Positions 56,127 through 56,740 of a stretch of DNA of 64,000 nt are shown here, in pieces; within the stretch, counting starts at the first letter, position 1, and the number at the start of each line of letters is the position of its first letter. The translations under genes were made by a program, and so were the position numbers. Origin of the DNA: a virus. Location: UHGV virus genome UHGV-0240017; one strand, written 5' to 3'. The notes under the pieces were generated by a model, which had not been told where the DNA came from, did no database searches, and saw nothing but the letters and a program-made list of their open reading frames with translations.

Positions 56127-56411
56127 TTACCCCGCCAATTTTAATAATTCCGAGTCAAGCGCGATACCGGCTTCCAAGTCCTCTTCAGTATCCTGGAAGA
56201 AACTGTTTATGTTGCTGATATTCTCGTTATGGAGAATCATGCAACTCGAAACCTCGTCCACATTCGTGCTTGACATAAACCCGTTGTCTGGGCGATAAGC
56301 CATGCCCAGTTCCATTTCAATCTGGTCGATTGCCAATCTGCATTGTAACTGGTCGCCATCGAAATCCTGTTTGTCCACTCCATTCCTTTTGGAGCAGGTG
56401 TGCAATGACAC
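56127..56411 (-). CDS. RNA polymerase beta-prime homologue, 3' exon (contains DFDGDQ catalytic motif)
   Basis: ...SLHTCSKRNGVDKQDFDGDQLQ... versus bacterial LHPLVCAAYNADFDGDQM; track start is a GTG inside the intron/exon boundary, true exon probably begins near 56402-56408. Confidence 0.7.
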   Translation of the reverse strand: MSLHTCSKRNGVDKQDFDGDQLQCRLAIDQIEMELGMAYRPDNGFMSSTNVDEVSSCMILHNENISNINSFFQDTEEDLEAGIALDSELLKLAG

Positions 56412-56740
56412 CCTCCCATGCTTTCACATGGGCACAGACTATATCATAACCGTAGGTATTGCTACCCGTAGGTCTCCCCCACTTCGCCGCTAAACTAAGC
56501 AGCTACTCTACTCGGTTTTACCCTTTCGATAGTCGTTGAACGATTTTCATCGCTGCTGGTTATCCATTATCGCAACCCTTAGCATTATTGGTTAGCATAG
56601 GTTATCTTACGAATTGTTTCTGACTTTCGCCACCCTGTCGGGATCGTAAGCTTTAGGGGTTTCCAGCAATTCGAGGGATACGCACTAGAGGTTTCCCGTC
56701 TAGTGGGCCAGTGTTTAGCATTAGGTGCTTTGATGACGCG
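56403..56740 (-). other. group I self-splicing intron (ORF-less) within the RNAP beta-prime-like gene; boundaries approximate (+/- 25 nt)
   Basis: Minus-strand P AATTGCTGGAAA (56660-56671), Q ACCAGCAGCG (56551-56560), R GTTCAACGACTA (56530-56541), S GATATAGTC (56437-56445) in canonical order; P/Q and R/S complementary; P9-like hairpin 56415-56432; flanking ORFs are two halves of one conserved domain. Confidence 0.7.

Follow-up and report, generated by a model that had tools for sequence, protein, structure and literature searches.

Why does the reading frame of an RNA polymerase (RNAP) gene break off directly before its catalytic aspartate motif? The locus that raises this question lies in a 64,000-nucleotide (nt) stretch of the virus genome UHGV-0240017 (hereafter, the window), in which two open reading frames (ORFs), 56585..58084 and 56127..56411, resemble parts of a β′ homolog. 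An earlier note, written from the sequence by eye, had proposed that a compact group I intron lacking an endonuclease gene, at 56403..56740, splits this β′-like gene beside the sequence DFDGD. That proposal is borne out by an Rfam match, by covariation, by an intronless allele, and by alignment to the homologous phiKZ subunit; the limits had to be redrawn. We conclude with high confidence that positions 56367..56716 are a subgroup IA-type group I self-splicing intron in the gene for the N-terminal β′-like subunit of a non-virion RNA polymerase (nvRNAP), its catalytic activity being predicted from structure and context. Coordinates are those of the window, and features lie on its minus strand unless stated otherwise.

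Identity and exact limits of the intron

The Rfam covariance model for group I introns (RF00028), run against the 64-kb window, matches positions 56415..56732 with 56.9 bits (gathering score 50; E = 8.6e-12), and the whole model is aligned (positions 1-253 of 253). The earlier note had named this search as a check, and its outcome, far beyond chance, places the element in the group I family. The window gave no second Rfam match, with the cutoff relaxed to E ≤ 0.1, and no tRNA gene.

The deciding comparison was with an intronless allele from IMG/VR (L015), whose encoded protein is 100% and whose exon nucleotides are 98% identical to those of the window. With a slash marking the junction, this allele reads ...GCGCCTAACGCT/GATTTC, also written ...CCTAACGCT/GATTTCGAT and ...AAAGCGCCTAACGCT/GATTTCGATGGC; the uninterrupted target site is CCTAACGCTGATTTCGATGG. 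A second intronless allele (L017) and a pair of Seoulvirus phages give the same limits. Of these two phages, EC001 has the intron and SPFM4 lacks it; they share one sequence up to ...ATGGCTAACGGT, after which EC001 carries 356 nt before both continue with GATTTCGAT....

The intron is thus 350 nt long, occupies 56367..56716, starts with AAACACUGGCCC, and ends with GGACAAACAG. Its limits cannot slide, because the intron's terminal bases are not the same as those flanking it. U56717, in the codon GCU (Ala456), directly precedes the 5′ splice site, and the 3′ splice site follows G56367, the terminal guanosine (omega-G) and last intron base. The junction, AAU GCU/intron...ACAG/GAU UUC, places the insertion point directly before the first Asp codon of DFDGD. 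Exon 1 (56717..58084; 456 codons) begins with a GTG start codon that has GAGGA 8 nt upstream, and ends AUC AAA GCA CCU AAU GCU (IKAPNA); exon 2 (56127..56366; 79 codons plus a TAA stop) begins GAU UUC GAU GGC GAC (DFDGD). Excision restores a single frame of 535 amino acids (aa), ...RVIKAPNADFDGDQLQC... (RVIKAPNA/DFDGDQL), the same in sequence as the L015 protein, with VIKAPNADFDGDQLQCR as the peptide that spans the junction.

The boundaries drawn by eye do not coincide with these. The proposed 5′ site at 56741-56765 is off by ~25-48 nt and the proposed 3′ site at 56400-56410 by ~33-43 nt. Conserved protein sequence, which had been taken to end at '...SLRIS', continues for 9 residues, through DRVIKAPNA, in intronless homologs. 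The sequence SLHTCSKRNGVDKQ, previously assigned to the downstream exon, is intron RNA (P9.1, P9.2, and the 3′ tail) that is in frame and open by chance, and the terminal intron G is not the one noted immediately ahead of the resuming frame. Placement near DFDGD was correct; the intron abuts the first Asp codon itself rather than lying just upstream with 14 extra residues in between. Joining ...TQC or ...LRIS to SLHTC..., as that exon assignment entailed, gives a sequence present in no homolog. Intronless relatives read RISDRVIK(M/A)(A/P)N(G/A)DFDGD, and the intronless homologs in phiEaH2, SPFM4, and CR5 read ...QCSLRISDRVIKMANG-DFDGDQ..., with no residues between that block and DFDGD.

The interrupted gene

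The two ORFs are consecutive pieces of one protein, since they cover adjoining parts of the phrog_2987 profile ('RNA polymerase beta subunit'; E = 4.5e-141). Residues 8-456 of the 499-aa product of 56585..58084 match profile positions 1-417, and residues 6-75 of the 94-aa product of 56127..56411, read from GTG at 56411, match positions 412-477. The earlier assignment of both ORFs to a single β′ homolog therefore stands and can be refined to the phiKZ gp55 family. Pfam returned only sub-threshold zinc-ribbon matches for both ORFs, and the gene is named through PHROGs and a PDB search. Among solved structures, the best match of the spliced protein is chain A of PDB 7OGP ('PHIKZ055, DNA-directed RNA polymerase, PHIKZ056.1'; E = 1.6e-38; residues 70-499). 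This chain aligns straight over the splice junction, with KAPNADFDGDQL in both proteins, so that the conceptual spliced product, whose alignment had been suggested as a check, is colinear with a known subunit. The Mg-binding motif NADFDGD is present in the spliced product.

When the spliced protein was searched against phage genomes by tblastn, 245 records were returned, all from jumbo phages. The closest matches are Erwinia phages of the phiEaH2/Asesino type (~67% identity) and Seoulvirus (~65%); remoter ones include phiKZ gp55, PhiPA3 gp054, and the 'nvRNAP beta' subunit 1' of Erwinia phage RAY. At the DNA level, the best identity in the phage genome collection is 71%, and near-identical contigs of ~220-228 kb occur in IMG/VR and metagenomes. 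By these sequence relationships, the interrupted gene is that of the N-terminal β′-like subunit of the nvRNAP of a phiKZ-type jumbo phage (gp55 family).

Covarying structure of the ribozyme

We aligned six homologous introns from the same site: those of the window, EC001, SPLA3, and VB_ZK_P1, and the cores of those in Proteus phage 7 and phiKp_32. RNAalifold gave P2, P3, P4, a branched P5 extension, P7.1, P7.2, P8, P9, P9.1, and P9.2. P6 and the P7 pseudoknot were added by hand, and four spurious helices were removed, before pairs were counted. RNAalifold, which cannot draw pseudoknots, had also matched the 3′ strand of P7 wrongly to the 3′ tail, and this pairing was replaced. Across the six introns, the 85 proposed pairs are formed at 98.4% of positions, with compensatory changes in 35 of them. 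When partners were slid by 1-3 columns as a control, 36-44% of positions were paired and 2-6 pairs were compensatory. None of 500 shuffles equaled the observed covariation score.

The four core elements recognized by eye (P, Q, R, and S) occupy the positions that the Rfam alignment gives them: AAUUGCUGGAAA is the P4 5′ strand, ACCAGCAGCG the P4 3′ strand, GUUCAACGACUA J6/7 and the P7 5′ strand, and GAUAUAGUC the P7 3′ strand. P1 (56707..56719), as read from the sequence, would pair exon G-3, C-2, and U-1 and intron A+1 with the guide UGGC (intron nt 7-10, 56707..56710) across a 5-nt loop, AACAC. A U56717·G8 wobble marks the 5′ splice site. Double changes keep this helix: GCU faces UGGC in the window, VB_ZK_P1, and phiKp_32, whereas GGU faces GCC in EC001 and Proteus phage 7, and the C-2:G9 and A+1:U7 pairs of the window are G-2:C and U+1:A in EC001.

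P2 (56683..56705) is the hairpin CACUAGA-C-GG GAAA CC-UCUAGUG, with 9 pairs, 3 of them compensatory, and 100% paired. The P3 5′ strand UCCCUC (56673..56678) pairs with GGGGGA (56475..56480); 4 of its 7 pairs are compensatory. The P4-P5 domain spans 56554..56668 and comprises P4 (UGCUGG 56663..56668 with CCAGCA 56554..56559), J4/5 (AAA), a short P5, and the branched P5 extension with its GAAA-capped hairpin. The 6 pairs of P4 are invariant or wobble; compensatory changes affect 6 of the 7 pairs in the P5a stem. In the Rfam alignment, P6 (CGAUGAAAAUCG) and then the R element GUUCAACGACUA occupy 56530..56552, and GACUA (56530..56534) forms the P7 5′ strand. Its partner UAGUC (56437..56441) lies within the S element GAUAUAGUC (56437..56445). 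One of the 5 P7 pairs is compensatory (U-A to C-G, in Proteus phage 7), and G183 (56534):C280 is the guanosine-binding pair predicted from the group I consensus.

Two extra hairpins lie between P7 and the P3 3′ strand: P7.1 (56512..56529), with compensatory changes in 2 of 3 pairs, and P7.2 (56486..56503), with such changes in 5 of 6. They are a hallmark of subgroup IA and point to this subgroup, the usual type in phages. P8 (56448..56473) has 4 compensatory pairs and is probably capped by a GCAA tetraloop on an inner GGUA/UACC stem, with GUAG/CUAC as a possible alternative pairing. The 3′ domain (56367..56432) consists of P9 (56415..56432), P9.1 (56396..56414), P9.2 (56377..56395), the tail GGACAAACA, and terminal G 56367. 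P9 is the hairpin CCCAUG-UGAAAG-CAUGGG that had been spotted by eye, and P9, P9.1, and P9.2 together contribute 7 compensatory pairs. A possible 2-bp P9.0, between UG (56435..56436) and CA (56368..56369) beside the terminal G, is invariant in 6 of 6 introns.

Parts of this RNA resemble sequences elsewhere. The R element and P7.1 segment (56503..56541, intron nt 176-214) shows ~95% identity over 39-41 nt to JSE/RB49-like T-even phages and some Acinetobacter phages, and annotation near these matches lists HNH or NUMOD genes; intron modules common to very different phage groups could account for the similarity. The conserved P9.1 motif GGAGGGTGT-N5-CACACCTGCT is also present in L019/L029 (a 244,062-nt contig) and in L020/L031. 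These contigs otherwise have little or no similarity to the intron or host gene, and the motif may mark additional introns, located in other genes, that belong to this broad lineage.

Splicing or a permanently split gene

In the mechanism that we propose, the pre-mRNA would fold into the P1-P9.2 ribozyme. Free guanosine would dock in P7 and attack the phosphate after U56717, held in P1 by the U·G wobble with the guide UGGC. The freed 3′-OH of exon 1 would attack after terminal G56367, and ...AAU GCU would be joined to GAU UUC..., restoring one frame of 535 codons. On unspliced RNA, translation would stop 43 codons into the intron, and the product would lack the Mg-binding Asp triad; splicing would therefore be needed for middle and late phage transcription.

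Several observations weigh against a functional, recently moved ribozyme. P1 is short (4-5 bp), P5 is down to 2-3 bp, and at most 1 bp of P10 can be drawn between AACAC (nt 2-6) and GAUUUC. Many group I introns can do without P10. Folded as a single sequence, the intron has a modest minimum-free-energy z-score (-2.2), and it is the comparative evidence that carries the structural argument. The presence/absence polymorphism described below can be read as gain or as precise loss. In the related phage phiKZ, long-read transcriptome data contained no spliced reads for three predicted introns, the one in gp55 included (PMC10914365). The solved phiKZ enzyme (PDB 7OGP) nevertheless contains a fused PHIKZ055 and PHIKZ056.1 chain, and splicing of such introns in vivo may be inefficient, condition-dependent, or hard to detect.

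The missing phiKZ reads would also fit a different history, in which the element is a decayed, non-splicing group I relic and the gene is permanently split, its 499-aa and 94-aa ORFs being translated apart and their products assembling. Jumbo-phage β′ is already encoded in separate gene pieces (PMC7598289), the second ORF is open from GTG at 56411, and GenBank lists the two pieces as separate coding sequences in EC001 and SPLA3. Decay is difficult to reconcile with the RNA, however: all core elements and 98.4% of pair positions are intact and have been kept by compensatory changes across lineages, and the intron is flanked by a U and ends in a terminal G exactly at the joint of the intronless alleles. 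Separate translation fares no better, for the GTG at 56411 has no Shine-Dalgarno-like sequence ahead of it and itself lies within P9/P9.1. Homologous introns differ in ways that track RNA pairing and do not preserve, at the protein level, the residues that each piece would gain (43 and 15). The split would sever the chain directly before the first catalytic Asp, and the solved phiKZ subunit is a fused chain. We consider a relic very improbable and retain the self-splicing intron as the interpretation of this locus.

Presence, absence, and transfer between lineages

The intron is polymorphic in two lineages. In lineage A, the window and L013, L024, L027, and L032 are intron-plus and L015 is intron-minus; in lineage B, L014 and L025 are intron-plus and L017 is intron-minus. 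In both lineages, intron-plus and intron-minus loci align with zero gaps over ±3 kb except for one 350-bp block. The exons of the two lineages have diverged to 74% identity (1193/1608, window versus L014), whereas their introns are 98-99% identical (343/350, window versus L014).

Within lineage B, differences between intron-plus and intron-minus exons cluster at the site: 9 of the 29 that separate L014 from L017 fall within -16..+17 of the insertion point, where ~0.6 would be expected if they were evenly spread. At 5 of these 9, L014 is like the lineage A intron-plus flank, although this is a short tract in a region where protein sequence is strongly constrained. Intron-plus alleles read AAT GCT/GAT TTC and intron-minus alleles AAC GCT. 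A near-identical intron in diverged exons, together with site-clustered differences, indicates recent transfer at the DNA level, perhaps with short co-conversion. The likely route would be recombination between co-infecting related phages, by which the intron moved, or was lost. The peptide APNA, in place of the MANG of Seoulvirus and Erskinevirus, was considered as a co-converted donor flank and rejected, as the intronless same-lineage allele L015 also has APNA.

Relatives of the intron carry an endonuclease gene. Homologous introns are 1404 nt long in Proteus phage 7 and SaP7 and 1430 nt in phiKp_32, and the added DNA is in each case a single ORF, which separates intron positions 6 and 7 in the P1 loop (L006 5551-6411 in Proteus phage 7, L011 1631-2497 in SaP7, and L009 1469-2488 in phiKp_32). 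These ORFs and phiKZ gp56 encode HNH and NUMOD domains of the I-HmuI type, with mutual E values of 1e-14 to 1e-19. Where the introns of the window, L013, and L014 differ, they do so mostly at nt 4-6, in the same P1 loop. Within Seoulvirus, a single species displays three states: intronless (SPN3US and the SPFM phages), ORF-less (EC001, JN03, 1252, and SPLA3), and ORF-bearing (Proteus phage 7 and SaP7). We take the window intron to be an ORF-less derivative of a mobile lineage that has an I-HmuI-like HNH-NUMOD gene in its P1 loop.

The P1-loop ORF separates the 5′ splice site from the guide sequence, so that P1 would have to form over ~1 kb. In Proteus phage 7, 3 nt lie between the stop codon of this ORF and the point, a few nt ahead of the guide, at which the sequence again resembles the window intron.

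The window intron itself is compact, as first described, and has no open stretch of more than 45 codons on either strand. No free-standing endonuclease was found beside it: the flanks are colinear with intronless loci, and tblastn with three related intron endonucleases returned nothing in the 64-kb window (best E = 0.11).

An ORF-less intron could still be mobile, through an endonuclease supplied in trans from elsewhere in its own genome or by a co-infecting relative ('collaborative homing'), or through reverse splicing. Free-standing endonucleases aimed at the insertion sites of ORF-less introns are known in T7-like phages and cyanophages. Such mobility would explain why introns 98-99% identical sit in lineages with 74% exon identity, why both lineages are polymorphic, and why exon differences cluster at the site, with AAT GCT/GAT TTC in intron-plus and AAC GCT in intron-minus alleles. 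Endonuclease-bearing relatives of the intron do occur in enterobacterial jumbo phages, and intron-encoded HNH enzymes do act on co-infecting chimalliviruses, as PhiPA3 gp210 demonstrates (PMC11620839). All eight intron-plus copies found in lineages A and B, however, are ORF-less, no homolog of the related endonucleases was detected in the window, no additional gene is present within ±3 kb of the site in intron-plus loci, and ordinary homologous recombination in mixed infections could shift a 350-bp block with no nuclease at all. We therefore regard continuing mobility of this kind as possible but unlikely. Doubtful, too, is the further proposition that the ORF-less intron spreads between distinct jumbo-phage lineages by way of a trans endonuclease, encoded elsewhere in its genome or by a co-infecting relative with the ORF-bearing form, and, by shielding the polymerase gene from that nuclease at the DFDGD codons, serves as a determinant of immunity or competition in mixed infections of nucleus-forming phages.

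Relation to known introns

One close counterpart is an ORF-less intron in Seoulvirus (EC001, Lh1B, JN03, 1252, SPLA3, and SPLA5c). It has an identical insertion site, between N-(G or A) and D-F-D-G-D, a ribozyme 70-73% identical over the full length, and the same P7.1/P7.2 and P9.1/P9.2 architecture, and it too is polymorphic, being absent from SPN3US and the SPFM phages. It differs in length (356 versus 350 nt), in a longer P6 and a shorter P7.1, and in a guide that fits a Gly (GGU) rather than an Ala (GCU) codon. RF00028 scores homologous introns at this site at 52-69 bits in Seoulvirus phages and at 59-64 bits in phiKp_32 and VB_ZK_P1. A search of the literature for Seoulvirus together with intron found no published description of the Seoulvirus element.

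In GenBank, the Seoulvirus intron is not annotated as such, and the gene appears as two coding sequences or truncated. The resulting misannotation affects records L001-L003, L011, and L012 (MT799840, MN445185, PP695294, OM456492, and OR413581), in which exon 1 runs on into the intron and exon 2 is either a separate 58-79-aa coding sequence starting inside the intron or missing; the polymerase N-terminus is shortened as well in the JN03 record. The correct product is one 535-aa protein with the catalytic Asp triad, an essential polymerase subunit that database records of this phage and its relatives give as split or truncated.

Introns in phiKZ RNAP genes, including gp55 with the HNH gene gp56, were predicted by Mesyanzhinov et al. 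2002, a prediction that later papers list (PMC10914365, PMC11512511). We located the gp55 intron at L008 2172-3540 (record 49171-50539), where RF00028 scores 75.6 bits. It shares with the window intron the host gene, the RNA family, and the codon neighborhood, and both spliced proteins contain KAPNADFDGDQL. Its junction, AAU/...G/GCU, between the Asn and Ala codons, is nevertheless one codon (3 nt) upstream of that in the window (GCU/GAU, between Ala and Asp), and it is 1.37 kb long with an HNH-NUMOD gene inside, against 350 nt and none. Only ~108 nt of the two introns are similar, at 72%, and the phiKZ intron is for this reason assigned to a different lineage at a neighboring site.

In the SPN3US paper of Thomas et al. 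2016, the only reference to introns is a figure legend stating that those in RNAP subunit genes are marked (PMC5105663). Birkholz et al. 2024 showed that PhiPA3 gp210, an endonuclease encoded by a putative group I intron of a virion RNA polymerase (vRNAP) gene, attacks co-infecting phiKZ (PMC11620839). The PhiPA3 intron resembles that of the window in being a putative group I intron in an essential chimallivirus RNAP gene, beside conserved catalytic Asp codons; elements of this family use nicking HNH endonucleases, and introns of this sort matter in co-infection. It differs in lying at another site, in the vRNAP β gene, and in encoding a working endonuclease that gives a competitive advantage, whereas the window intron has none.

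The T-even introns td, nrdB, and sunY belong to subgroup IA2 in the Michel-Westhof classification. Like the window intron, they interrupt phage mRNA at conserved active-site codons of essential enzymes, are of IA type with P7.1/P7.2 and P9.1/P9.2, and are polymorphic. Unlike it, the T4 introns occupy other host genes. Their P6 or P9 loops contain GIY-YIG or HNH ORFs; relatives of the window intron have theirs in the P1 loop.

The window intron is thus of a known type, the group I introns at active-site codons of chimallivirus RNAP genes, as an analog of the phiKZ gp55 intron and a homolog of the unannotated Seoulvirus introns. It adds a clean natural example to this pattern and overturns no current understanding. 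Worth keeping are the exact junction with its 535-aa product, the near-identical ORF-less introns in two polymorphic lineages, and the crowding of insertion sites: 15 nt of the sequence encoding N-A-D-F-D-G-D hold three, between N and A in phiKZ, between A and D in the window family, and between G and D in VB_ZK_P1 and phiKp_32. The system could be used to ask how ORF-less introns move between phages. If this phage forms a phage nucleus, as we infer by analogy from relatives such as Erwinia phage Asesino, it could also serve to study ribozyme splicing where transcription and translation take place apart.

The third of these sites reflects a second insertion. Raoultella phage VB_ZK_P1 (L010 2858-3180) and Klebsiella phage phiKp_32 (the equivalent region of L009) have two intervening sequences in the polymerase gene: the group I intron before GAT, then a 12-nt micro-exon, GATTTTGACGGT (DFDG), and then an insertion of 311 nt that follows a U and ends in G. 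With both removed, the gene encodes 535 aa, of which the C-terminal 130 are the same as in the protein, also 535 aa long, of the intronless Klebsiella phage YC1. The 311-nt insertion has no Rfam match at E ≤ 1, a fold z-score of -3.5, and partial homologs in unannotated DNA of Aeromonas jumbo phages.

Neighboring ORFs

Directly upstream of the polymerase gene, ORF 58169..60016 encodes a 615-aa protein that matches phrog_8316 (function unknown). In phiKZ, PhiPA3, and N1M2, the gene for the nuclear-shell protein is found at this place. Synteny suggests a nuclear-shell protein, an assignment that was not upheld by BLASTP against phiKZ gp54 (E = 0.25) or by phmmer against PDB (no match).

At 58076..60025, 4218..6476, 19283..20593, and 20787..21974, long plus-strand ORFs (395-752 aa) lie antisense to equally long minus-strand ORFs. 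A strong PHROG match identifies the minus-strand member, 58169..60016, as the real gene in the first of these pairs only; the plus-strand antisense ORFs look like shadow ORFs.

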